This document shows, piece after piece, positions 1-29,190 of a stretch of DNA of 64,000 bases. Numbering within the stretch: the first letter of the stretch is position 1; each line of letters opens with the position of its first letter. The translations under genes were made by a program, and so were the position numbers. Location: the NCBI RefSeq assembly GCF_003018255.1, contig NZ_CP027440.1. One strand, written 5' to 3'. The stretch comes from Escherichia coli (lineage in GTDB: Bacteria > Pseudomonadota > Gammaproteobacteria > Enterobacterales > Enterobacteriaceae). Under the pieces are notes generated by a model. That model worked only from the letters and a program-made list of their open reading frames with translations, had not been told where the DNA came from and ran no database searches.

Positions 1-891
1 AGAATGCACTTTCGTTGCGTCAAACTGTGTAGTTGCGCAGAATTTTTTCACGCGCACAGAGCTGACAGCGTATTTTTTGCCCGTAATTTTGCTCAGGATA
101 TCAAAACAATATCCACCCAGCATTCCTAGTGGGTAAGGCAAGTGCATAGAAGGGATCTTTTTGTTCAGGCTTTGTTCAACTTCAGCAACCAACTGGTTCA
201 TGTTCAGGTCTGGCTTATCAACGTAGTTATAAACCTCATAACCTGCGGCAACATTCTTCAGTTTGTACTTGATAAACTCAACAATGTTTCCAACATAAGC
301 CATGGACTTATAGTTAGTCCCTGCTCCCACCATCATAAACTTGCCGCCAGCGATCTGTTTCAGCAAGTTATAGACGTTACCGCGGTTGCGTTCACCGAAG
401 ATAACGGTAGGACGGATGATAGTTAATGAACGTTCTGATGGTGCTTTGTTATACCATTCACGCAGCACTTCCTCCGCCTGCCACTTACTTTTGCCGTAGT
501 GGTTGAAAGGGTCGTGTGGATGGTTTTCGTCAGGGTTGTGTTTGTTCAAACCATAAACAGCAACGGAACTGGTAAAGATGATATTTTTAACGCCATTTTT
601 TTCCATGGCCGCCAGCACATTGCGGGTACCCTGAACATTGACATCATAATAGAGAGAAGTAGGGCTGACGTCATCGCGGTGTTCCGCTGCCAGTAGCACA
701 ACAGTGTCAAAACCGGCTAACGCCTGGTCGAGTGCCTGTTGATCACGAACATCGCCAATCTGTGTGATTTCTGGATAAAAGTGGCTCTGCTGTTTGTCCA
801 GGTTCTTGATATTAAAGTCAGCAATTGCCGTTTCAAGTAGTCGGGTTCCTACGAATCCGGAAGCTCCTATGAGCAAAACGTTATCGTTCAT
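1..891 (-). CDS. gne: NAD-dependent sugar epimerase (SDR family), probably UDP-GlcNAc/GalNAc 4-epimerase Gne; 3' end cut by window edge
   Basis: Minus-strand ORF starting at ATG 889-891 (MNDNVLLIGASGFVGTRL...) with Rossmann GxSGxxG motif; runs off the window start. Position next to wcaM matches recalled gne location in GalNAc-containing O-serotypes. Confidence 0.6.
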   Translation of the reverse strand, partial: MNDNVLLIGASGFVGTRLLETAIADFNIKNLDKQQSHFYPEITQIGDVRDQQALDQALAGFDTVVLLAAEHRDDVSPTSLYYDVNVQGTRNVLAAMEKNGVKNIIFTSSVAVYGLNKHNPDENHPHDPFNHYGKSKWQAEEVLREWYNKAPSERSLTIIRPTVIFGERNRGNVYNLLKQIAGGKFMMVGAGTNYKSMAYVGNIVEFIKYKLKNVAAGYEVYNYVDKPDLNMNQLVAEVEQSLNKKIPSMHLPYPLGMLGGYCFDILSKITGKKYAVSSVRVKKFCATTQFDATKVHS

Positions 892-1048
892 AAATCACTT
901 TAGTCTGGTTGTTACGTAAGAAACACAAGATAAAGATGAGTACCTTCCCTGAGTAGTCAATGCTGCCCAGCCCCAGCTTTAACAGTTAGTGTGAGGATTA
1001 TAATCTTTTAGAACATTATATCCAGTAAGTTTATGAATGGTCGCAAAT

Positions 1049-2443
1049 CTACTCCCTCCGTTCCGGCAATCTAAAGTTAATCTTTTCCACATTAACAATA
1101 TGGTGATTAATCCTGTCGATATCGACAGAGCTTTGTCCTTTTTCATTCACCGCATGAACATTTGCAAGAGACAGGAGTGTTTCTTTTTTCGCCATAAAGA
1201 CACCTCGTACGTCTTTGCGCATGTCGAAGTTCATGCTCAGTGCGGGTCCAACAGTGGATTCCTGCATCACATTGATATTTCGCATAAAAAGATGTTGCGG
1301 TTTATTGTGAAGCTCCAGCGACGCACGCTTCATCTCAATGTTAGTCAGCGCCACAAAGGAGACAGCATTCCCGGCAGAGATTTGGATGCCGCGCAATTTA
1401 TAAGCAAGGTAGGTGTTATCCAGTTGAATATTATTCACCCGGAAATTCTGCGGTATCGAGAGATATTTGCCTTTAATTACCCCATAACCGATTAACATCC
1501 CGGCGCTATTAATCATTTCAATATTATCAATCACGAAATTGTCACAACCGTAAATAGCGACTGTCGCGTTATCAATGCCTGCTTTCTTACTGAAATCCGG
1601 TGTGATATTGCGGGCCTTGATATTACGAATAACAAAATGTTTACCATTTTCAACATGGATCAGTTGCCGACAATCCGATCCCGTGATATTCGCCACGACA
1701 AAGTTTTTCACTGCCTGGTTTTCCGGATAATTATTATCGTAGGTACTTCCCGCAAGGCCTATGCCGATGCCCCAGTTGATTTTGCCGTTGGTACAGTTAA
1801 TGCGCTCAATGAGATGGTCGGATATCAAAATATCACTGTCGTTAATCGCCACGTTCCATTCAATAGCGTCGCCCTGTAAGTCGCTGAACTTACAGTTGGT
1901 GATGTTGGCACCGATTATCTGGTTATGAAATCCCTGGCGTAAGATGGCGTAATTAGCGTGGCTAACGTTCAGGTTATCGATGGTCAGGTTACGCATGACC
2001 CGTTTGTTTTTGCCGCCGATATAAATCTGCGTTACCGGGCCAAAGCCGCTCATCGCAAGCCCTTTGATGGTGCAGTCAGAGCCGCGCACATCCAGGGTGA
2101 TGTTATGCATACTGCCGCCCTCCTCCCCTGTCACCTGGCTGCCGTCCTGTAAGACAAATCGCCCTCTGCCATTGCCGCGCAAGCTTCCAAGGATGTGTAA
2201 CGTTTTGCCAGGAGGAATGAAGATGCCGGTGTTGATATTGTCACAAACGAATCCAGCAGGCACGACGATCGTTCGCCCTTCGCTGAAGGCTTGTTTAAAT
2301 GAGGCGATCCAGTCGTGTGGGTTGTAGTCGTTAATGTTAACGCTTTGTCGGGCGGGAAGTGCGCGAGCGAAAGGGGTATGGAGGAAGGCAAGCGCCGAGC
2401 TTGCCGTCAGGAAGGTGCGTCGGGAGAGTTTTTTAAATGGCAT
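1049..2443 (-). CDS. wcaM: colanic acid biosynthesis protein WcaM
   Basis: 464 aa ORF with Tat-like signal ([15 protein letters not shown]); last gene of cps cluster in expected position. Confidence 0.9.
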
Positions 2444-2453
2444 GCGTTCTCCT

Positions 2454-3674
2454 CTATAAAGCTTGCAGCAAGCTGGCGAGTTCTCGATTGATCACCTGCT
2501 GGTTAAAATCGTGTTCGACTTTTTCGCGAGCACGTTTGATAACCGGAGCCAGTTCGTCGGTGTCCAGTTGGCTAAACGCCGCCAGTCGTTGCGCCAGTGC
2601 GCGAGCATCGTTCTCAGGCACCAGCCAGCCGGATTTATCGGCCTCCACCAGTTCCGGTATTCCGCTATGCAGAGTAGAAACCACCGGAATGCCGACCGCC
2701 ATCGCTTCCATTAGTGCCACCGGAATACCTTCCATATCGCCGTCCGCACCTGTAACCGATGGCAACAGGAAGACATCCGCGTCGTCGAGCATCGCCTTCA
2801 CTTCATGGCTCGGTTTAAAGCCCGGCATCTCTATCACATCTTCCAGTTGATATTGTTCGATGAGGGTGCGCAGGCGTCGTTCCCACGGGCCAATGCCGAG
2901 GATGCGATAGCGAAATGCCACGCCCTGCTCTTTCAACTGACGGCAGGCTTCGATCGCCACATGCAGGCCTTTTTTCTCGGTTAAGCGTGCGACGGAAATG
3001 ATTTCCAGCGGTATTGCGGGCGCTTTCACCGGACGCGGGCTAAAGCGCGTCATGTCCACGCCCATGCGCGATACAGCGATTTTTTCCCTCGGGCAGCCCA
3101 TTTTTTGCAGCCTCCCGGCCCACAGATCGCTTATCGGTAGCATCAGGTCGCCACGGCGGAACAGTTGCTGATATTCGGGAGTGTAGTGGTTGAGCACTTC
3201 CCGACTGGAGATATCAATACCGTGGAAGATAGTGGCAATTTTGCCGCGAATGATACCCAGTTCGCGTAGTTTTGCTGCGGTTACCCCCGCCGGGCCAAAA
3301 TGAGCGATAAAGACATCGGCATAAAATGGTGTTGCGACCTGACCACAAATGGCAGACAAAATCAGGTTCCGCGACTCGGCACCATAGCGTTTGAGGTTGA
3401 GCGCCTGCCAGGTATTTTTACGATGAATGCCGCGTAAGGTCTGGCTGGCGCGGTGGCGCAGCTTCGCCACTTTGCCCGTAGGTTCGTCCTGTAACCAGCG
3501 GGTTCTGGCGGCAAGGTTGTATTTCGTCCATGCCGCGTGGGTGTTCTCTGTATCGCCTTTTTGCAGCGCGACAATCTCCACCTCAAAGCCCATATCAATA
3601 AACGCAGTGATTTGGTTGAGGACGAAGGTTTCCGACGACAACGGAAATTTCAGTAAAAAGAAGCCGACCTTCAT
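2454..3674 (-). CDS. wcaL: colanic acid glycosyltransferase WcaL
   Basis: 406 aa ORF, GT4-type glycosyltransferase; 4-bp overlap with wcaK stop. Confidence 0.9.
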
Positions 3675-4951
3675 TTCGCCTCCCCGATGCGCTCAAGCAC
3701 TGACTGCACCATCTGCATTCCTGTCTGACGCTCACGACTGACGGCTTCACTAAGTCGCGCATTCAGCGCCGGAAGCTGGCCTAAGGTATCCGCAACCATC
3801 GCTTGCAGGCTGCCGTCCAGTAAATGACGGATATCAATTGCCATCTCTGGTAGCCCCAGTTGTTGCATAATCCCGGCGGATTTATGTTCATAGTTGATGG
3901 CAATCGCCGGAGTGGCAAAGTTCATCGAGATAATGGCAGAGTGCAAGCGCGTACCGACGGTGAGTTCACAGGCCCCCAGAATTTTGCCCATTTCCAGATC
4001 ATTGAGTTCATCCATCACTACGTGGTAACGGGCAGGATCGCTGATGTGCTGGCGCAGGTTGAGCGCCACCATGCGGTCGTCTTTGTTATAGCTGTCGATG
4101 CCCGTACAGGTGGAAAGCGCAATCACCTGATAGCCTTCGTCGAGAATGCGATTGACCACCCCGGCAAAGGCTTTTTCATACGCTTGCTGAGTGGTGCCGA
4201 GACGTTTGTCGAACGGTGCCAGTTCGCGCAGGGTAATTGCCACCGTTTTCTGTTGTGCGGCAACGTCCAGCCAGTGTTGAACAGCATAGCTGGCGGTGAA
4301 GTCTTCAATGTGGTGATCGACCAGCCACGCGGTATCGACGCCATGTTCAACTTTTGCAGTGGTGATATTGCTGCGTTTCATCAAATCAAGGCTGACCGAT
4401 TCGCGCAGGATCAGCGCGTCGCAGTGACCAAAGACATAGTTCGCCAGTTGGTTAAATTGCTCATCCTGGAAGGGGCCGACGCTGTGACCAATCATAAACA
4501 GCGGCTTTTTCGCCATGAAAGTGCAAAGCGCATGTTCAAACTGCGGCACGCCATAGAGATCGACAAAAAACGATCCGCCGACCTGAATAATGGCGTCGTA
4601 ACCTGACAGCAGTCGCACGAAGTCAGTGAATCCCTGGGCGATGGCGATATTACGCAGCTTGCCAGTGTCGGTGACGCGTGAGAGCAATACCTGGTGCTGG
4701 TAGCGGCGACGGAGGACTTTTTTAACGCGCCCAACAACGCCCGCCGCGCTGTTGTGTTGTTTCATTTGCAGGAACAGCGGGTCGCCCATTACCGGGCGGT
4801 TGAGCAGCCAGGAAGAACTGACCGGATAGCGGCTCATCACGTCCACTTCGGCATGTGGATTGAGGATGTTGATGGCATCAAGTAAGCCACGCAGGATGGC
4901 GCTATCGCCACGATTGCCGCAAGTGTGGTTGCCCAGAATAAGTAATTTCAT
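3671..4951 (-). CDS. wcaK: colanic acid pyruvyl transferase WcaK
   Basis: 426 aa ORF (MKLLILGNHTCGNRGDSAIL...), polysaccharide pyruvyl transferase family. Confidence 0.9.
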   Translation of the reverse strand: MKLLILGNHTCGNRGDSAILRGLLDAINILNPHAEVDVMSRYPVSSSWLLNRPVMGDPLFLQMKQHNSAAGVVGRVKKVLRRRYQHQVLLSRVTDTGKLRNIAIAQGFTDFVRLLSGYDAIIQVGGSFFVDLYGVPQFEHALCTFMAKKPLFMIGHSVGPFQDEQFNQLANYVFGHCDALILRESVSLDLMKRSNITTAKVEHGVDTAWLVDHHIEDFTASYAVQHWLDVAAQQKTVAITLRELAPFDKRLGTTQQAYEKAFAGVVNRILDEGYQVIALSTCTGIDSYNKDDRMVALNLRQHISDPARYHVVMDELNDLEMGKILGACELTVGTRLHSAIISMNFATPAIAINYEHKSAGIMQQLGLPEMAIDIRHLLDGSLQAMVADTLGQLPALNARLSEAVSRERQTGMQMVQSVLERIGEAK

Positions 4952-4974
4952 TTTTTCCTCATAAATTTGATGCC

Positions 4975-5605
4975 AGGTGAGGCTGTGTTTGTTGTGTTCG
5001 TTGCCGTTTTTTGCCTGATGCGACGCTAACGCGTCTTATCAGACCTACAAGTCCCGAGCACAGAACCGTAGGCCGGATAAGGCGTTCACGCCGCATCCGG
5101 CATTCAGTGCCTGATGCGACGCTGACGCGTCTTATCAGGCCTACAAGATCCGAGCACAGAACCGTAGGACGGATAAGGCGTTCACGCCGCATCCGGCATT
5201 CAGTGCCTGATGCGACGCTGACGCGTCTTATCAGGCCTACAAGATCCGAGCACAGAACCGTAGGACGGATAAGGCGTTCACGCCGCATCCGGCATTCAGT
5301 GCCTGATGCGACGCTGACGCGTCTTATCAGGCCTACAAGACCCGAGCACAGAGCCGTAGGACGGATAAGGCGTTTTACGCCGCATCCGGCATTCAGTGCC
5401 TGATGCGACGCTGACGCGTCTTATCAGGCCTACAAGATCCGAGCACAGAACCGTAGGCCGGATAAGGCGTTCACGCCGCATCCGGCATTCAGTGCCTGAT
5501 GCGACGCTGGCGCGTCTTATCAGGCCTACAAGATCCAAGCCCAGCCCCCCAGGACGGATAAGGCGTTTTACGCCGCATCCGGCAACCGTTGCCGGAACCG
5601 AAAAC
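4975..5605. repeat. REP/BIME array, about six tandem ~98-bp units of paired inverted REP elements
   Basis: Motif gcctgatgcgacgctgacgcgtcttatcaggcctacaag...ggataaggcgttcacgccgcatccggc recurs at ~5004, 5110, 5208, 5300, 5398, 5494. Confidence 0.9.
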
Positions 5606-5611
5606 AACCAT

Positions 5612-7090
5612 TCACCCCGCCCGTAAAAGCATTTTCATTTTTTCGCTGCGACAAAACTGACGCTTCACTTCCACCACCAGCGGATGGCGTGACAGCACAA
5701 TCATCACCACAAACGCCAGCACGCCTGCGGCTATTTGCACCGCCAGCAGCATCCCCAGCGCCAGTTGCCCTTTCAGCACAATGCCCAGCGCATAACTGAC
5801 CCCCAGTGTCGGCAACGAGAGATAAAACGGCAGCCACAAACTCAGGATGTACTGGCGATAACTGGAACCAAGAACCGGTTTAATCATCACGAAGTAACTC
5901 AGAATGGTGTTGATAATCTGCACCAGCAGGAAACCGAGCGTGACGCCGATTGCGCCCGCCATCTGCCCACCAATAACAATCGCCGGAATAAACAGAAATG
6001 TTTTGAATACGTTGAATTTAAAGCTGATATCGACCCGCGCTTTCGCCATCAGCAGCGAACCAATCGGGTTACCCACCGAACGCAGCAGTCCCACCACACA
6101 CAGCAATTGCAGCACCGGAATAATGCTGTTCCACTTCTCACCAAAGACCAGCGGTACAAAGTTATTCGACACCACCATCAGCCCCAGCAGCGCCGGAAAG
6201 TTGATAATCCCCACCACCGACAGCAGCTTGTAGAAGTTGACGCGCAGCTTTTCGGTGTCGTCCTGAATTTTGGCAAATGCCGGAAACAACACGCGGGTGA
6301 TGATTGGGTTCAGCTTCATCGGCGGCACAACGGCCACGTTGTACGCCAGGTTGTATCCCCCTGCCACGCCCGCGCCGAGAATACGCGCCAGCACCAGCGT
6401 TGAAAGGTTAGTGTTGAGATAGTTGATGATGCTGTCCGCCGTCAGCCAGGCACCAAAGCGTAAGTTCGGTGCCACCGACGCCAGCGAGAAATGCAGACCG
6501 GGGCGATAAATTTTGCGACCAAAGTAGCCAAACAGCAGCGTTCTCACCGCACTATTGACCAGATAACCGAGGATCGCAGTCATCGCCAGCGGCCAGAAAT
6601 GGGCGCTAACCACCGTAAAAGTGAAGCCCGCCAGCACCGCGCTGGTTTCGATCATGCCGATTTTGTTGAACTCCAGCTCCTTCTGCATCAACGCGCGGAA
6701 CTGTTGCCCGTGGGGGATTACCACAAACGCCAGCGACAATGTTTTAATCAACGGTGCCAGGTCCGGGTTGTTCAGCACGTCACCAATGAGATCACTCAAC
6801 AAAAACACCGCCACACACACCACAAGCCCCAGCCCGACGTTTAGCCAGTACAGCGTGGTGAGTTCAAGGTGGCTGATTTCTTTTCGCTGAATAATCGAGT
6901 TAGCGATACCGAAGTCAGAAAGCGTATCTGCCAGCGCGATAATCACCAGCGACACGGTAAGCAGGCCGAACTGGTGGTTGTCGATAATCCGCGCCAGCAC
7001 GGTCATCTGCACCAGCCCAAGGCCGATGATGATCACCGTGGCAATCGCCGACCACTTCGCGCCGCTGATGGTTTTTTCACGTAAGCTCAT
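5612..7090 (-). CDS. wzxC: colanic acid repeat-unit flippase WzxC
   Basis: 492 aa polytopic membrane ORF (MSLREKTISGAKWSA...). Confidence 0.9.
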   Translation of the reverse strand: MSLREKTISGAKWSAIATVIIIGLGLVQMTVLARIIDNHQFGLLTVSLVIIALADTLSDFGIANSIIQRKEISHLELTTLYWLNVGLGLVVCVAVFLLSDLIGDVLNNPDLAPLIKTLSLAFVVIPHGQQFRALMQKELEFNKIGMIETSAVLAGFTFTVVSAHFWPLAMTAILGYLVNSAVRTLLFGYFGRKIYRPGLHFSLASVAPNLRFGAWLTADSIINYLNTNLSTLVLARILGAGVAGGYNLAYNVAVVPPMKLNPIITRVLFPAFAKIQDDTEKLRVNFYKLLSVVGIINFPALLGLMVVSNNFVPLVFGEKWNSIIPVLQLLCVVGLLRSVGNPIGSLLMAKARVDISFKFNVFKTFLFIPAIVIGGQMAGAIGVTLGFLLVQIINTILSYFVMIKPVLGSSYRQYILSLWLPFYLSLPTLGVSYALGIVLKGQLALGMLLAVQIAAGVLAFVVMIVLSRHPLVVEVKRQFCRSEKMKMLLRAG

Positions 7091-7091
7091 A

Positions 7092-8486
7092 TCAATATGC
7101 CGCTTTGTTAACGAAACCTTTGAATACCGTCAGGAAAACGATTTTGATATCGAACCAGACGCTCCATTCGCGGATGTACTCAAGGTCGAACTCGACGCGT
7201 TTTTCCATTTTCTCCAGTGTGTCGGTTTCGCCGCGCCAGCCGTTAATCTGCGCCCAGCCGGTAATGCCCGGTTTCACTTTATGGCGCAGCATGTAGCCTT
7301 CAATGAGCTGGCGATACTGTTCGTTATGCGCCACCGCGTGCGGACGTGGCCCGACAATCGACATCCCGCCAGTCAGCACATTGATAAACTGCGGCAATTC
7401 ATCCAGCGAGGTGCGGCGCAGAAAGTTCCCCACTTTGGTGACGCGCGGATCGTTCTGCGTCGCCTGGGTCACCACTTTGTCGTTCTCCATCACTTTCATG
7501 GAACGGAACTTCCACACTTTGATCGGCTTGCCGTCCATGCCGTAGCGAGTCTGGCGGAAAATAACCGGCCCCGGTGAGCTCAGTTTCACCGCCAGCGCAA
7601 TGCAGCACAGCACCGGGGAGATCAGCAGCAGGATAAGCGTCGCCAGCACAATATCTTCCGCACGTTTGAGCAGGCGGTTAACCCCGGAAAGCGGCGTGTC
7701 ATACAGCGGCACCACCGGAACGCCGTTCATCTCTTCGAGACGTGAATGGAGAATGTTGAAGGTAAAGACATCGGGGATCAGCAGCACCGAACAGGTGGTA
7801 TCCGCCAGTTGATGGACCAGTTTTTTCACTCGCGCGCCGTCGCACATTTGCATTGCGATATAGACGTTATGAATCTTGCCCGCTTTCGCATCCTCGACCA
7901 GCTGTTGCAGATTGCCCGCCCAGTCGTTAGAAACGCCGCCCGGTTTCGGGTCGTGGTAAACGCCCACCACTTCAAACCCTAACCACGGCTGATTACGGAA
8001 GCTCTCCATCAGCATTTGTCCGGCGGCTAAATCTCCCGCTACGGCGACCATGCGCTTGTTATAGCCATGATTACGCAGCCAGCCCGCCCCAATGCGAATA
8101 CACGAACGGCAAACCACCAGTCCGATGCTGGTCAGCCCATACCACGCCAGCCAGATTTTCAGTTGCGTGTCGAAATCATTGTTGAACGCCACCAGCCCGG
8201 CGCTGAAAATCACGCTTAACGTCCAGTTTTGTAGCAGCAGGGCAAATTCTGTCGCTGCCCGAACACCGCGCCATGAGCGATAAAAATCGGTGATGCCGCC
8301 CAGCATCTGGAACACCACCAGCGTAATCAGCGCCACCAACAGGTGCATGTAGAGGAATGACAGTCCGCTGACTTCGCAAACCAGCCATAGCCCGGCAAAC
8401 ATGATGGTGATATCTGAAAAGCGTTGCACCATAGAGATTAACGATGCATTGGTTTTCGCTCGCTCGCGCTTTTTTAGATTTGTCAT
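7092..8486 (-). CDS. wcaJ: undecaprenyl-phosphate glucose-1-phosphate transferase WcaJ
   Basis: 464 aa ORF with N-terminal membrane segments and C-terminal sugar-transferase domain. Confidence 0.9.
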   Translation of the reverse strand: MTNLKKRERAKTNASLISMVQRFSDITIMFAGLWLVCEVSGLSFLYMHLLVALITLVVFQMLGGITDFYRSWRGVRAATEFALLLQNWTLSVIFSAGLVAFNNDFDTQLKIWLAWYGLTSIGLVVCRSCIRIGAGWLRNHGYNKRMVAVAGDLAAGQMLMESFRNQPWLGFEVVGVYHDPKPGGVSNDWAGNLQQLVEDAKAGKIHNVYIAMQMCDGARVKKLVHQLADTTCSVLLIPDVFTFNILHSRLEEMNGVPVVPLYDTPLSGVNRLLKRAEDIVLATLILLLISPVLCCIALAVKLSSPGPVIFRQTRYGMDGKPIKVWKFRSMKVMENDKVVTQATQNDPRVTKVGNFLRRTSLDELPQFINVLTGGMSIVGPRPHAVAHNEQYRQLIEGYMLRHKVKPGITGWAQINGWRGETDTLEKMEKRVEFDLEYIREWSVWFDIKIVFLTVFKGFVNKAAY

Positions 8487-8540
8487 CGTTGTTCCTGTTA
8501 TTAGCCCCTTACCCGCAGTGGGGTAAGGGAAGATCCGACA

Positions 8541-9911
8541 TTACTCGTTCAGCAACGTCAGCAGAGTTCGCGTTCGCGCTTCCATCAGCGGCACGTCACC
8601 GCGCGATTCCACATTCAACCGCACCACCGGTTCGGTGTTGGAGGAGCGCAGATTAAAGCGCCAGTCGGCAAAGGTCATACTGATGCCATCGGTGCGATCC
8701 ACCGCCAGCGCCTCACGGCTAAAATGCTGTTCGACGCGGTTAATCGCCTCAACGGGTTGCGCCAGTTTGCTGTTGATCTCACCGCTTGCCGGAAACGCTG
8801 CCATCCGGTCGCGCACCAGTTCGCCCAGCGTTTTTCCTTTCAGGCACACCAGTTCGGCCACCAGCAGCCATGGGATCATGCCGCTGTCGCAGTAAGCAAA
8901 ATCACGGAAGTAATGGTGGGCGCTCATTTCGCCACCGTAGATGGCGTCTTCCTTGCGCATCCGTTCTTTAATAAAGGCGTGTCCGGTTTTCGACATTACC
9001 GGGGTGCCGCCTGCGGCAGTCACCACATCAACGGTGTTCCAGGAGAGACGCGGATCGTGGATGATCTTCGCGCCGGGATTATTTTCGAGGAACGCTTCTG
9101 CCAGCAGGCCGACAATGTAGTAGCCCTCGATAAACTGCCCTTTTTCGTCAAACAGAAAACAGCGGTCAAAATCGCCATCAAAGGCAATGCCCATATCCGC
9201 GCCGTGTTTGATGACCGCATTGCGGGTGTCGTCGCGGCATTCCGGCAGCAGCGGGTTAGGAATTCCGTTGGGGAAATTGCCGTCCGGCGTGTTGTGCACT
9301 TTGATCAATTCCACTGGTGCGCCGAGGGCTTTAAAGCGGGCTTCAATGGCGTCCACCACCGGACCCGCTGCGCCGTTCCCGGAGTTGATCACCAGCTTGA
9401 GCGGCGTGAGGTTTTTGACGTTGATATAACCGAACAGGTGATCAACGTAAGCGTCACGCAGATTGATTTGCTGATAGCGACCGCGTTTGGTTTCATCAAC
9501 GGGAGAGAAGTCGTTGGCTTCTGCCAGACGCTGGACATCGCGCAGTCCGGTATCACCGCTGATCGGGCGAGCCCCTTCGCGCACCAGCTTCATGCCGTTA
9601 TAATCCATCGGATTATGGCTGGCGGTAACTTCAATGCCGCCATCCACGCCGAGATGGAACGTGGCGAAATAGATCTCTTCGGTGCCGGACATACCAATAT
9701 CCAGCACATCGACGCCCGCATCCTGTAAACCTTTCGCCAGCGCCAGTTTTAAGGTTTCGCTGGTGAGGCGGGCATCACCACCTAACACAATGGTTTTCGG
9801 TTTGAGAAATTCGCCATAGGCGCGACCAATGCGCCAGGCGATATCTTCATTCAGTTCTTCGCCTAATTTTCCGCGAATATCATAGGCTTTAAAGCAGGTT
9901 AATTTTTTCAT
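8541..9911 (-). CDS. cpsG: phosphomannomutase CpsG (ManB)
   Basis: ORF 8541-9959; start placed at internal [14 protein letters not shown] giving 456 aa; phosphohexomutase motif TASHNP present. Confidence 0.88.
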
Positions 9912-25007: not shown

Positions 25008-26591
25008 ATGGAATGGATTGCCGATCCGTCTATCTGGGCCGGGTTAATCACGCTGATTGTGATCGAACTGGTCCTCGGCATTGATAACCTGGTCTTTATT
25101 GCCATCCTCGCCGAAAAACTACCGCCGAAGCAGCGCGACCGCGCACGGGTTACCGGGCTGTTGCTGGCGATGTTAATGCGCCTGTTACTGCTGGCGTCAA
25201 TCTCCTGGCTGGTCACCCTGACTCAACCGCTGTTCAGCTTCCGCTCGTTTACCTTTAGCGCCCGCGACTTAATCATGCTGTTTGGTGGTTTCTTCCTGTT
25301 GTTCAAAGCCACGATGGAGCTGAACGAACGGCTGGAAGGGAAAGACAGCAATAACCCCACCCAACGCAAAGGTGCGAAGTTCTGGGGGGTGGTGACACAA
25401 ATTGTGGTACTGGACGCCATCTTCTCACTCGACTCGGTGATTACCGCCGTCGGGATGGTCGACCATTTACTGGTCATGATGGCCGCCGTGGTTATCGCTA
25501 TCAGCCTGATGTTGATGGCCAGCAAGCCATTAACGCAATTTGTTAACAGTCACCCGACCATCGTTATTCTCTGCCTAAGTTTCCTGTTGATGATTGGCTT
25601 TAGCCTGGTGGCGGAAGGTTTCGGCTTCGTCATTCCGAAAGGCTACCTGTACGCTGCCATTGGTTTCTCGGTGATGATCGAGGCGCTCAATCAGTTGGCT
25701 ATCTTTAACCGGCGACGTTTTCTTTCCGCTAATCAGACGCTGCGCCAGCGGACTACCGAAGCGGTAATGCGCCTGCTTAGCGGGCAAAAAGAAGATGCGG
25801 AACTGGACGCCGAAACCGCGTCCATGCTGGTGGATCATGGTAACCAGCAGATCTTTAATCCGCAGGAACGGCGGATGATTGAGCGGGTACTTAATCTTAA
25901 CCAGCGTACCGTCAGCAGCATTATGACGTCGCGCCACGATATTGAGCATATCGATCTCAACGCGCCGGAAGAAGAAATCCGCCAGTTACTGGAGCGAAAT
26001 CAGCATACGCGGCTTGTCGTTACTGATGGCGATGACGCAGAAGATTTGCTCGGTGTTGTTCACGTTATCGACCTGTTACAACAGTCTCTGCGCGGCGAAC
26101 CGCTCAACCTGCGGGTGTTGATTCGCCAGCCGCTGGTGTTCCCGGAAACCTTGCCGTTGTTACCTGCCCTGGAGCAGTTCCGTAATGCCCGCACACACTT
26201 TGCTTTTGTGGTGGATGAGTTTGGCTCGGTGGAAGGGATTGTGACATTAAGTGACGTCACTGAAACCATTGCCGGTAACTTACCGAACGAAGTGGAAGAG
26301 ATCGACGCCCGCCATGATATTCAGAAGAATGCGGACGGTTCCTGGACGGCGAATGGTCATATGCCGCTGGAAGATCTGGTGCAATATGTGCCGCTACCGC
26401 TGGATGAGAAACGCGAATATCACACCATTGCCGGGCTGTTGATGGAATATTTGCAACGTATTCCAAAACCTGGCGAAGAAGTTCAGGTGGGGGATTATTT
26501 GCTTAAAACGTTGCAGGTGGAAAGCCATCGCGTGCAGAAGGTGCAGATTATTCCGCTGCATAAGGATGGCGAGATGGAGTACGAGGTGTGA
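25008..26591 (+). CDS. yegH: TerC-family membrane protein with CBS and CorC domains, YegH
   Basis: ORF 24942-26591; start placed at [13 protein letters not shown] giving 527 aa. Confidence 0.85.
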
Positions 26592-26598
26592 TAAAACA

Positions 26599-26628
26599 TC
26601 AAATGCGCAGGTTCAAACTGCGCATTTG
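26599..26628 (+). terminator. hairpin downstream of yegH (10-bp perfect stem aaatgcgcag/ctgcgcattt)
   Basis: Inverted repeat seen directly; the following T-tract is weak, so intrinsic-terminator function is uncertain. Confidence 0.45.
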
Positions 26629-26665
26629 ATTTATACAAAATTTAGTATAATCTAAGGATGGAGTA

Positions 26666-27004
26666 ATGAGAAAAAAGCTGGCTTTTCTTGATACCAGTCT
26701 TGACGATTTACGCGCATTTCCAGAATCGTCTCGACAGGAAATTGGCTATCAACTCGACAGGATCCAACAAGGGTTAAACCCATACGACTGGAAACCTTTT
26801 TCAACTATCGGCCCTGGTGTGCGAGAGATTCGTACTCGCGATGCTGATGGGATCTATCGCGTCATGTATGTCGCAAAATTTGAAGAAGCGGTTTACGTAT
26901 TGCATTGTTTTCAAAAGAAAACACAGACTACCAGTCAATCGAATATTGATTTAGCCAAACGACGCTATAAAGAACTTGTTCAGGAGCGGAAAAATGAAAA
27001 TTGA
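26666..27004 (+). CDS. putative type II toxin, RelE/ParE superfamily (phage Gp49/HigB-like)
   Basis: 112 aa ORF with SD (ggag) and an upstream perfect TATAAT at 26646-26651; small basic protein; overlaps the downstream HTH gene by 11 bp; family assignment from recalled sequence similarity only. Confidence 0.6.
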   Translation: MRKKLAFLDTSLDDLRAFPESSRQEIGYQLDRIQQGLNPYDWKPFSTIGPGVREIRTRDADGIYRVMYVAKFEEAVYVLHCFQKKTQTTSQSNIDLAKRRYKELVQERKNEN

Positions 27005-27284
27005 AACCTTTGATAGTGTGTGGGATGCGGTGAGTGACACCCCTGAACAAGCGGAAAATATGCGGATCCGTGCCGAACTTGTTACGATCATTAATAACTG
27101 GATTGAACAACAAGGGTTTAGCCAGGCTCAGGCAGCGTCTGCTTTAGGGGTCACTCAACCTCGCATATCTGAACTTGCCAGAGGTAAGATCCAGATCTTT
27201 AGTATCGATAAATTGATCACCATGATGGCTCATGCAGGATTGCATATTCAACGTATTGAAGTTCAATATCCACATGCTGCTTAG
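26994..27284 (+). CDS. putative antitoxin, HTH XRE-family DNA-binding protein (HigA-like)
   Basis: 96 aa from ATG 26994 (MKIETFDSVWDAV...), preceded by AGGAG; HTH-like segment FSQAQAASALGVTQPRISELARGK; alternative in-frame start at 26976. Confidence 0.6.
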   Translation: MKIETFDSVWDAVSDTPEQAENMRIRAELVTIINNWIEQQGFSQAQAASALGVTQPRISELARGKIQIFSIDKLITMMAHAGLHIQRIEVQYPHAA

Positions 27285-27295
27285 TACTATAAATA

Positions 27296-27325
27296 CAGAT
27301 GGCGACAAATTGACGCCGCCATCTG
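27296..27325. terminator. hairpin between convergent antitoxin gene and asmA (9-bp stem cagatggcg/cgccatctg)
   Basis: Inverted repeat seen directly; could terminate either convergent transcript. Confidence 0.4.
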
Positions 27326-27336
27326 CATAACTTGTC

Positions 27337-29190
27337 TTACATCTTCTCCAGCAACTTCTTCACATCTTTGCCATTGCGGGAATCTTTATTCCGCTCGGCC
27401 CAGTCATTCAGGCGACGTTTCGCTTCGTCCTGTAGATGTTTGCGCAGTAACTGATCCACTTGCAGGCTGTAATTAAGTTGCTGCCAGTTGCCATAAACCC
27501 GCAGCGGTACTGGCGTTTCTTTGAGGAAATCAATCAGTTTGCTTTCCCCGTTCCAACCGCCAATCACACGAATGTCAAACTGGGTGTCGCAGGTTTGATC
27601 TGCCAGATTCAACATGCCTTCCCCTGTCAGCGCCAGCACAGGCGATTGACCTTGCATGTCGTTTAACGTCACGACGCCATCCTTCAACGTCAAATCGGTG
27701 GTAAAGCGGTCAAGACGCGTTACGTTATCGAAGTTTTCAGCGGCCTTCACATCACCACCATTACGTTCTACCGCTTGCTGAATCATCTGCTGGAAGTTCA
27801 TCCCTTCCATGCGCGTGTCGGTCATTTCGACATGTGCCTGTCCTTGCCAGTTATGGCGGAATGCGTCGGCATCTATGTCAGCACCGGAGAAATCACCAGC
27901 CAGTGACATCTTTCCGGTCAACGAAATCGGATAGTTAAACGCCTTCAGAATGGTGCCAATCTCAACGTTTTCCAGCCGTGGCTGGAAGTTTATTCGCGGA
28001 TTTATTGATGTCGCGTCCAGCGTGCCCGGCAGTGAAACCTGTCCACCGTTAAGTTTGCCCTGCAGTTGAGTAATTTCCAGCAGACCCGACTTGTTGGTCA
28101 TTTGCGTGGCAACATCTGTAAAATTCATTCCGCGCCAGCGCACGTTACTGGCCTGCAACAAAATATCAGCCGTAAAGCCTTGCAGTCCCTGATAGGCCGG
28201 TTCATCAATACGCGAAGAAATGACCGGGCGCGGCAACGTGGATTGGCTCTGCCCCTGCTGCGCGGCACCGTTTTCACCGTTCGCTGTTTCTTTAAGCGGG
28301 ATGAGGTTGTCAAGATTCAGTTGCGGGAATTGCAGCCTCAGCTGCCATTCCGGTTTCTCTGTCAGCGTGACCTGTGCTTGCCCGCTCAGCGTACTGTCAT
28401 TGGCGGTCAAGCTGATTTGGTTAAATGAAAGGCGTTTATGTGACTCCTGCCACTGGGCCTGGAAACTCCCCTGCCCCTGAATACCTTGTTTTGGTAAATC
28501 TGCACCCTGCAACTGCCAGTTAACTTGTTCAATAGCCGCCGTTAAATCATGCGGATAATCAGAAGCATCTACCGTACCGTTAAGGGATATCGTGAGATCG
28601 CGCTGATCGCGATTAACCCGCCCGGAGAACTCAAATGAACCACGATGTTGGGGATCTTGTTCCATTTGCAGGCGAATATTGCGGATTGTCACCTGCTCGT
28701 CATCTTCATGCTGGAACACCAGCACGCTGTCCGCCACCTTAAGACTGGATATATCAAACGACCATCCGCGATCGTCTGACAGATCCGGCAAGGTATTGTC
28801 GCGCGGTGCAACCGGAGCGTCTTCACTGCGCACCGCTTCCGTCTGCGGCGTCAGTTGGATCACTGCCCCTTTTAGCATCACCTGCTTAACGCTCAGTTGA
28901 TGACTCAGCAGTGGTAAAAGCGCCACGTCCAGACGCATGTTGTCTGCGCGAACCAGTGGCTGGCTCGCGCCCTGGGCAGTGAGAGACATTCGCCCGGAGA
29001 GGATACTAAGCTGCGGCCAGACGTGCCAACGCAGTGGCCCGTCGAGCTGCAATTGATAACCGCTACGTGCAGCAACTTGCTTGACCATATAGTCGCGGAA
29101 ATCATTCGGATTCACCAGCAACACTAACGCAGATAACCCGGCCACCAGCACGACCAGGAGTATCATCAGCGTCGTCAGAAATCGTCTCAT
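27337..29190 (-). CDS. asmA: outer-membrane assembly protein AsmA
   Basis: 617 aa ORF with N-terminal membrane anchor (MRRFLTTLMILLVVLVAGLSALVLL). Confidence 0.9.
   Translation of the reverse strand: MRRFLTTLMILLVVLVAGLSALVLLVNPNDFRDYMVKQVAARSGYQLQLDGPLRWHVWPQLSILSGRMSLTAQGASQPLVRADNMRLDVALLPLLSHQLSVKQVMLKGAVIQLTPQTEAVRSEDAPVAPRDNTLPDLSDDRGWSFDISSLKVADSVLVFQHEDDEQVTIRNIRLQMEQDPQHRGSFEFSGRVNRDQRDLTISLNGTVDASDYPHDLTAAIEQVNWQLQGADLPKQGIQGQGSFQAQWQESHKRLSFNQISLTANDSTLSGQAQVTLTEKPEWQLRLQFPQLNLDNLIPLKETANGENGAAQQGQSQSTLPRPVISSRIDEPAYQGLQGFTADILLQASNVRWRGMNFTDVATQMTNKSGLLEITQLQGKLNGGQVSLPGTLDATSINPRINFQPRLENVEIGTILKAFNYPISLTGKMSLAGDFSGADIDADAFRHNWQGQAHVEMTDTRMEGMNFQQMIQQAVERNGGDVKAAENFDNVTRLDRFTTDLTLKDGVVTLNDMQGQSPVLALTGEGMLNLADQTCDTQFDIRVIGGWNGESKLIDFLKETPVPLRVYGNWQQLNYSLQVDQLLRKHLQDEAKRRLNDWAERNKDSRNGKDVKKLLEKM

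Follow-up and report, generated by a model that had tools for sequence, protein, structure and literature searches.

The window analysed here, a 64,000-nucleotide stretch of the Escherichia coli contig NZ_CP027440.1, contains two small overlapping genes between yegH and asmA. With a probability of roughly 80 %, these constitute a type II toxin-antitoxin (TA) operon which combines a Gp49/Tad toxin (COG4679, PF05973) with an HTH_37/Ata antitoxin (COG5606, PF13744), was acquired horizontally, with a plasmid-borne module as the most likely source, and has become fixed at this site in a minority of E. coli lineages. The pair is an uncharacterised member of a well-known and highly mobile type II TA family, and the RefSeq (PGAP) annotation already names the toxin, WP_001563602.1, as 'type II toxin-antitoxin system RelE/ParE family toxin', with the second gene product, WP_000687872.1, listed as 'helix-turn-helix domain-containing protein'. 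The two open reading frames (ORFs) overlap by 11 nt (26994-27004) on the same strand and are located in the window, together with their signals, as follows.

26666-27004, + strand: toxin ORF with ATG start, 112 aa (from the ORF list)
26994-27284, + strand: antitoxin ORF with ATG start, 96 aa (from the ORF list)
26646-26651, + strand: perfect TATAAT -10 hexamer, read from the sequence, no TGn extension
26654-26663, + strand: Shine-Dalgarno region of the toxin gene, made up of AAGGA (26654-26658; 7 nt separate it from the ATG) and GGAG (26660-26663)
26982-26986, + strand: AGGAG, Shine-Dalgarno sequence for the antitoxin, located inside the toxin gene 3' end with 7 nt between it and the ATG
26631-26650, no strand: palindrome of 10+10 nt, TTATACAAAA/TTTAGTATAA, a candidate operator overlapping the -10 box

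An earlier note on this DNA had read the two products as a Gp49-type toxin of the RelE/ParE superfamily followed by an XRE-type helix-turn-helix (HTH) protein, and profile searches confirmed both assignments. The toxin matched the Pfam family Gp49 (PF05973) over the full length of the model (positions 1-90 of 90, independent E-value 3e-30), and the second product matched HTH_37 (PF13744, 5e-22) and also HTH_3. PHROG 2523 matched the toxin at 2e-36, and PHROG 2339 was also found for the pair. Within the RelE/ParE superfamily, gp49 is counted as a family of ribosome-dependent mRNases (PMC11980606). The coordinates proposed in the note for the 112 and 96 aa ORFs and their 11-bp overlap were exact, and the perfect TATAAT and Shine-Dalgarno sequences that it had ascribed to the pair are present, the latter before both ATG codons. 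Its description of the pair as HigBA-like held for the toxin-first order only, since the canonical HigBA models were not matched and the pair instead belongs with the Tad-Ata/Gp49-HTH_37 modules. None of the HigB Pfam families (PF05015, PF09907 and PF06296) was matched by the toxin, and the NCBIfam HigA model TIGR02607 reached 16.3 bits on the antitoxin against a cutoff of 47.7, on which grounds identity with canonical HigBA was rejected. The NCBIfam model TIGR02683 (upstrm_HI1419 RelE/ParE toxin) likewise scored 24 bits against a cutoff of 62.85; NCBIfam matches for the pair were sub-threshold throughout and no equivalog name could be assigned.

The AlphaFold2 model of the toxin, for which 70 diverse homologues served as input, reached a mean predicted local distance difference test score (pLDDT) of 96.5 and a predicted template modelling score (pTM) of 0.88. 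Its strands (E) and helices (H), in the order E4-7, H11-16, H20-34, E42-44, E52-59, E62-69, E75-84 and H91-111, give a predicted RelE topology (beta-alpha-alpha-beta4) with an added long C-terminal helix, a feature typical of Gp49-like toxins (PMC9098466). The top Foldseek matches were Streptococcus pneumoniae HigB (6AF3/6AF4) and Mycobacterium tuberculosis HigB1 (7AWK, and 7NBU in the ribosome-bound state with mRNA), with further matches to Thermus thermophilus RelE, M. tuberculosis RelE1/2 and Vibrio cholerae HigB2; the entries 2KHE and 5JAA were also among the top matches. The best PDB matches of the model were all RelE-superfamily ribosome-dependent mRNases. In a profile alignment to HigB1, residues E54, R56, R65, F82, K84 and Q87 of the toxin fell on E66, R68, R77, F93, K95 and Q98, so that all six are retained, and the substitution K95A is known to abolish HigB1 toxicity (Mansour et al. 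2022, PMC9098466). Among 205 homologues, E54, R56, R65, H80, F82, K84 and K85 were at least 95 % conserved, and all are kept here. The modelled fold and pocket suggest that the toxin is a ribosome-dependent mRNA endonuclease of the Gp49/Tad RelE superfamily.

The antitoxin resembled the NE1354 regulator (2A6C) both in sequence (3.4e-14) and in fold (template modelling score (TM) 0.84, root mean square deviation 1.2 A), and its N-terminus carries a conserved F-x-S-V-W-D-A motif. A fused toxin-linker-antitoxin chain, modelled from a paired alignment of the related loci as a proxy for the complex, gave a pTM of 0.85 with both domains above pLDDT 95 and the linker alone disordered; antitoxin residues 3-6 form a beta-strand in this model.

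Species-representative genomes were scanned to follow the association of the two genes, which gave 80 loci in Proteobacteria, Acidobacteria and Mycobacterium whose toxins were 57-70 % identical. An HTH_37 homologue was located directly downstream on the same strand in all 80, starting -4 to +135 nt from the end of the toxin match. Homologues numbered 7672 in a non-redundant protein-cluster database and 3729 among representatives of 50 %-identity clusters. Compared with plasmid-borne relatives, nonsynonymous divergence (dN) was 0.12-0.29 with saturated synonymous divergence (dS), and dN/dS was 0.04-0.07 where computable.

The relatives also share a palindrome upstream of the toxin; its consensus is (T)ATACAAAAnTTTTGTAT(A), and its usual distance from the start codon is 21-37 nt. 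In the strict form ATAC-N8-10-GTAT it was present in 52 of 79 upstream regions, whereas the remainder of the same loci led to an expectation of about 0.0005 per region. Judged by this recurrence, the palindrome at 26631-26650 is a predicted conserved operator for the HTH antitoxin. The searchable literature yielded no paper containing the ATACAAAAnTTTTGTAT operator sequence. In a GP49-type module of Acinetobacter baumannii, autorepression by the antitoxin with the toxin as co-repressor has been established experimentally (PMC5906591), and the conservation of the operator would fit autorepression by analogy with that module.

Under this TA interpretation, both genes would be transcribed from the TATAAT promoter and translationally coupled via the 11-nt overlap; such coupling is plausible given that the antitoxin Shine-Dalgarno sequence lies within the toxin gene 3' end. 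Dimers of the XRE-type HTH antitoxin would bind the palindrome over the -10 box and repress the operon, and the antitoxin would neutralise the toxin by direct binding, its N-terminal segment being predicted to add a beta-strand beside the toxin. Loss of the labile antitoxin would free the toxin, a putative RelE-fold endonuclease that would enter the ribosomal A site and cut mRNA through the E54/R56/R65/F82/K84/Q87 pocket.

The GC content of the pair was 43 %, compared with 51-53 % in the flanks. The closest relatives outside E. coli (79-81 %) are on Salmonella contigs beside IncFII repA or beside TraW/TraX and exclusion genes, and homology to these copies is confined to about 26626-27290, the operator and the two genes. 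Homologues were found in 640 plasmid records. Within the species-representative genome scan, no other Escherichia or Salmonella chromosome carried the pair, the best match being from Pantoea at 70 %. Toxin homologues also occur in phage N15 (gp49, 33 % identical) and in Mycobacterium abscessus prophages, where 'RelE-like toxin' genes (e.g. MW314858.1:48691-49005) reach 57 % identity, unusually high for a comparison of Enterobacteria with Actinobacteria and in keeping with a module that has spread widely by horizontal transfer.

Carriage of the same module by E. coli plasmids was rejected. Three 'plasmid' matches above 98 % contain yegH, asmA, dcd and udk and are chromosomal segments, and besides these no plasmid-borne E. 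coli copy above 90 % identity was found. The plasmid-labelled records NZ_CP114132.1 (L087, the 438-kb pNJS001-2) and NZ_CP083887.1 (L085, 43 kb) carry a wza-wzb-wzc-yegH-TA-asmA-dcd-udk segment and may be misassemblies or captured chromosomal DNA. Separately, plasmid-like contigs of Salmonella diarizonae contain a second, divergent Gp49 and HTH pair next to TraX/TraW-like genes (L089:5913-6504 and L090:5014-5605). It is encoded on the opposite strand at a distance of about 1.3-1.6 kb from the homologous one, so that a single conjugative element has two modules of this family.

The distribution of the pair was determined in 5426 complete E. coli genomes. The promoter and toxin 5' half were present in 792 of these and the antitoxin gene in 908, corresponding to carriage in about 15-17 % (about one in seven), and the pair was always single-copy and always at yegH-asmA. 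Carriers include O157:H7, O55:H7, S88 and 042, and about 730 genomes, from several lineages, keep the toxin ORF intact with 95-100 % nucleotide identity. The suggestion in the earlier note that the pair is strain-variable was thereby upheld, as was its statement that yegH and asmA are adjacent in K-12 without such genes: the 273-bp K-12 spacer holds no TA genes, only a repetitive extragenic palindromic (REP) sequence and an unannotated element.

The note had further described the pair as inserted in core genome. The neighbouring genes (wza-wzb-wzc, yegH, asmA, dcd and udk) do indicate a core-genome setting, but the term 'insertion' is shorthand, as the whole spacer is replaced at a polymorphic site. 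This follows from the divergence of the TA allele from the others, which has the stop codons of yegH and asmA as its exact limits, and from the lack of any target-site duplication flanking the pair when one was looked for. At least five alternative alleles exist, the shortest being a single REP of 67 bp and a 'long' allele containing an extra single-copy element of about 385 bp. A 9-nt repeat, GATGGAGTA, shared by the yegH end (26573-26581) and the toxin ribosome-binding site (26657-26665), was considered as a duplication and rejected as being at chance level, about 1.3 such repeats being expected in 841 bp and four seen. This repeat lies at the left junction in a 16-nt stretch of 81 % similarity. 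At the other end of the spacer, the asmA stop codon (window 27337-27339; K-12 L001:1266-1268) is TAA in TA alleles and TAG in REP-type alleles.

In many E. coli the place of the pair is taken by the unannotated element of about 385 bp next to a REP (L095:793-1243 in strain KN93, homologous to window 26592-27336; also L003:993-1383). It gave a sub-threshold match to the Rfam family TwoAYGGAY (RF01731; 31.5 bits against a gathering threshold of 43, E 0.004), in which an outer stem encloses two neighbouring hairpins whose loops are AUGGAU and AGGGAU (L095:894-1037). The K-12 spacer (L001:993-1265) equals the long allele minus about 178 bp between ACCCAAT and ACCCGAT repeats, an internal deletion that removes both AYGGAY hairpins; the remaining block of about 190 bp is single-copy, unannotated and present in 4335 of the 5426 genomes. 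One REP-type allele (NZ_CP024243.1, O128:H27 strain 90-9281) has an IS110-like element, IS621, in the yegH-asmA spacer.

Two hairpins had been proposed to bracket the pair, and both are real.

26598-26630, + strand: stem-loop directly 3' of the yegH stop codon, 13-bp stem, 7-nt loop, folding free energy (dG) -20.6 kcal/mol, z -8.6
27296-27325, - strand: stem-loop flanked by the stop codons of the antitoxin gene and asmA, dG on folding -24.7, z -6.4

The upstream structure is a terminator-like hairpin of yegH and is missing from K-12 and REP-type alleles. The downstream one is probably the terminator of asmA rather than that of the pair, because it is more stable on the - strand (dG on the + strand is only -15.5 kcal/mol) and a U-rich tail follows on the - strand only; it may additionally stop the TA transcript. 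An Rfam search of the TA region returned nothing, the top match being STnc40 at 20.6 bits (E 0.99).

About one in five carriers (approximately 177 of 908) have a dead toxin gene and an intact antitoxin gene. In about 116 genomes the toxin has lost its 5' part, being truncated at about codon 57 and joined to an unrelated element, and in 61 genomes (for example L088) a 23-bp deletion causes a frameshift. The latter falls between two direct repeats within the toxin gene.

26725-26739 and 26748-26762, + strand: 15-nt direct repeats ATCGTCTCGACAGGA / ATCAACTCGACAGGA, 23 nt spacing

The antitoxin was intact in every toxin-inactivated allele inspected. Both lesion types encode an identical antitoxin protein, WP_000687871.1, and given this shared protein the status of the two lesions as independent events is not established. 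In the hybrid allele (L003:1380-1390 and L002; strains PKF8 and Z30), the unannotated element is joined directly to toxin codon ~57 at the junction …GGTGCCGCCG|CTCGCGATGC…, with the antitoxin retained along with a 3' end of the TA type. This allele may have arisen by illegitimate recombination between allele types or may go back to an older arrangement of element plus TA. Overall, the chromosomal module acts as a selfish accessory element in slow decay.

Several observations weigh against an active TA operon. Sequence similarity to solved toxins is weak, with a barely significant single-sequence PDB search (E 0.019) and a profile search at 1.9e-5. The toxin has T88 at the position of HigB1 K99, a residue needed for HigB1 toxicity (PMC9098466). 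The M. tuberculosis Gp49-type paralogues HigB2 and HigB3 are non-toxic (PMC9098466), and membership of the Gp49 family is therefore no guarantee of activity. The predicted toxin-antitoxin interface comes from a fused-chain model, which is only a computational proxy for the complex. Lastly, the promoter has no recognisable -35: most relatives have a TTGCC/TTGAC -35 box a few nucleotides left of the palindrome, and here the family-typical TTGCC box is displaced by the yegH hairpin, the right arm of which sits at the -35 position. Because an acceptable -35 is absent, a sigma-70 consensus scan called no + strand promoter upstream of the toxin.

A rival explanation is an attenuated or domesticated module, the toxin of which is no longer meaningfully toxic, as for HigB2 and HigB3. 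The pair would then persist either neutrally or in the role of a small transcription factor and its co-factor. The lost -35 box, T88, the frequent toxin inactivation among carriers and the existence of non-toxic Gp49 paralogues (PMC9098466) are consistent with this explanation. However, all near-invariant active-site residues are retained, the intact toxin ORF persists in the approximately 730 genomes noted above (O157:H7, S88 and 042 among their lineages), and an intact antitoxin accompanies each inactivated toxin inspected. T88 as an inactivating lesion was rejected because the column varies family-wide (K 78, T 43 and A 35 of 205, with R also occurring), and T, A or S at this position is common in presumably functional plasmid-borne relatives. 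We consider attenuation an unlikely account of the pair.

An equally unlikely explanation is that the chromosomal copy, in particular where toxin loss has left an orphan antitoxin, provides anti-addiction or immunity by neutralising homologous toxins of incoming plasmids, prophages and transposons, so that the host sheds these without post-segregational killing. The carriers that keep an intact antitoxin beside a dead toxin (about 116 truncated, 61 frameshifted) would be consistent with such a role, as would the 79-81 % homologues on Salmonella conjugative/IncFII plasmid contigs; the operator and antitoxin N-terminus are also highly conserved across the family, favouring cross-reaction. However, toxin-first decay is also predicted by neutral TA decay, because losing the antitoxin first is lethal. 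Moreover, no E. coli plasmid-borne homologue above 90 % identity was found, the three 'plasmid' matches being chromosomal segments, and cross-neutralisation would have to work at about 65-80 % identity. It is less likely again that the module, reduced to an orphan antitoxin in about 20 % of carriers, is kept by selection because it cross-neutralises and, via the phylum-spanning ATACAAAAnTTTTGTAT operator, cross-represses homologous Gp49-HTH_37 modules brought in by IncF-type plasmids, Tn3 transposons or prophages. A selected locus of this kind, if real, would shape which mobile elements are retained or shed by E. coli lineages, O157:H7 for example.

The earlier note had also mentioned a defence role, for which PADLOC gave no support. 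Such a role would take the form of abortive infection, in which phage shut-off of host transcription depletes the labile antitoxin, frees the RNase and aborts the infection. In its favour, defence toxins reportedly include several type II TA modules, of the RelE superfamily and others (PMC11980606), the module varies between strains as an accessory element, and the antitoxin has a weak match to the PADLOC candidate PDC-M64C (6e-5). However, the search of PADLOC-DB v2 returned no significant match to a curated defence model, the best for the toxin being NsnC at E 0.0016 over a partial region. The locus is also not a defence island, its neighbours being wza-wzb-wzc, yegH, asmA, dcd and udk, and the phage- and prophage-borne relatives fit addiction or superinfection exclusion at least equally well. 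A defence function is the most doubtful of the proposed roles. That the pair represents chance ORFs or a mis-annotated intergenic region has nothing but small size in its favour and is refuted by the Pfam matches (3e-30 and 5e-22), thousands of homologues, synteny in 80 of 80 loci and a dN/dS far below 1.

The pair adds one accessory type II TA system to the E. coli pangenome, which matters little beyond bookkeeping. Three by-products are modestly useful: a sharply defined, cross-phylum operator consensus for the Gp49-HTH_37 family, a clean set of natural variants in which the toxin decays first at a single locus, and a map of the alternative alleles between yegH and asmA. Should the toxin prove active, the pair would be a convenient chromosomal model of a Gp49-type RNase in pathogenic lineages (O157:H7, S88 and 042). 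A survey of TA systems in the E. coli pangenome lists 11 Gp49 clusters (PMC10790755); literature searches gave nothing on a yegH-asmA TA locus or its RefSeq protein accessions.

Among known systems, canonical HigBA (Proteus vulgaris Rts1; E. coli K-12 ygjN-ygjM) and V. cholerae HigBA2 resemble the pair in being toxin-first, with a RelE-superfamily toxin and an XRE-HTH antitoxin repressing a promoter-overlapping operator, a repression that is predicted here. They differ in the Pfam families of the toxin (PF05015/PF09907/PF06296), and the HigA model is far under cutoff on the antitoxin.

The best structural matches (TM 0.63-0.68) were M. tuberculosis HigB1 (Rv1955, of a toxin-antitoxin-chaperone (TAC) system; 7AWK, 7NBU; PMC9098466) and S. 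pneumoniae HigBA (6AF3/6AF4), with which the toxin shares the RelE fold, the long C-terminal helix and the equivalent E/R/R/F/K/Q pocket, whereas sequence identity is only about 21-23 % and T88 stands in place of HigB1 K99. A tripartite TAC was rejected, as the locus has no SecB-like chaperone gene and the convergent asmA lies within 52 nt of the antitoxin stop.

For gp49-gp48 of phage N15, whose gp49 is the founder of Pfam Gp49, the toxin was 33 % identical over 95 residues (E 5e-17) and the arrangement is likewise toxin-first with genes that overlap or abut. The antitoxin, in contrast, gave no alignment to gp48 at E <= 100 and is therefore a partner from a different HTH lineage, and full homology to the N15 pair was rejected since the antitoxins are unrelated. 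The A. baumannii pAB120 HigBA2 module (PMC5906591) also has a GP49-domain toxin first and an HTH antitoxin, with autorepression that is toxin-enhanced. That module is plasmid-borne and belongs to a different subclade.

Tad-Ata modules are reported from Paracoccus aminophilus pAMI2 (Dziewit 2007) and from SXT. Tad-Ata joins a COG4679 (DUF891/gp49) toxin to a COG5606 HTH antitoxin (Makarova et al. 2009, PMC2701414), and Tn3 transposons are documented to carry toxin-first Gp49-HTH_37 pairs as passengers (PMC7157771). In contrast to these pairs, the present copy is chromosomal, at a fixed core-genome site with no adjacent transposase, resolvase or plasmid genes, and is without the family-typical -35 box. 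It has in common with them the combination of PF05973 with PF13744, the toxin-first order, the compact two-gene layout and the association with mobile elements.

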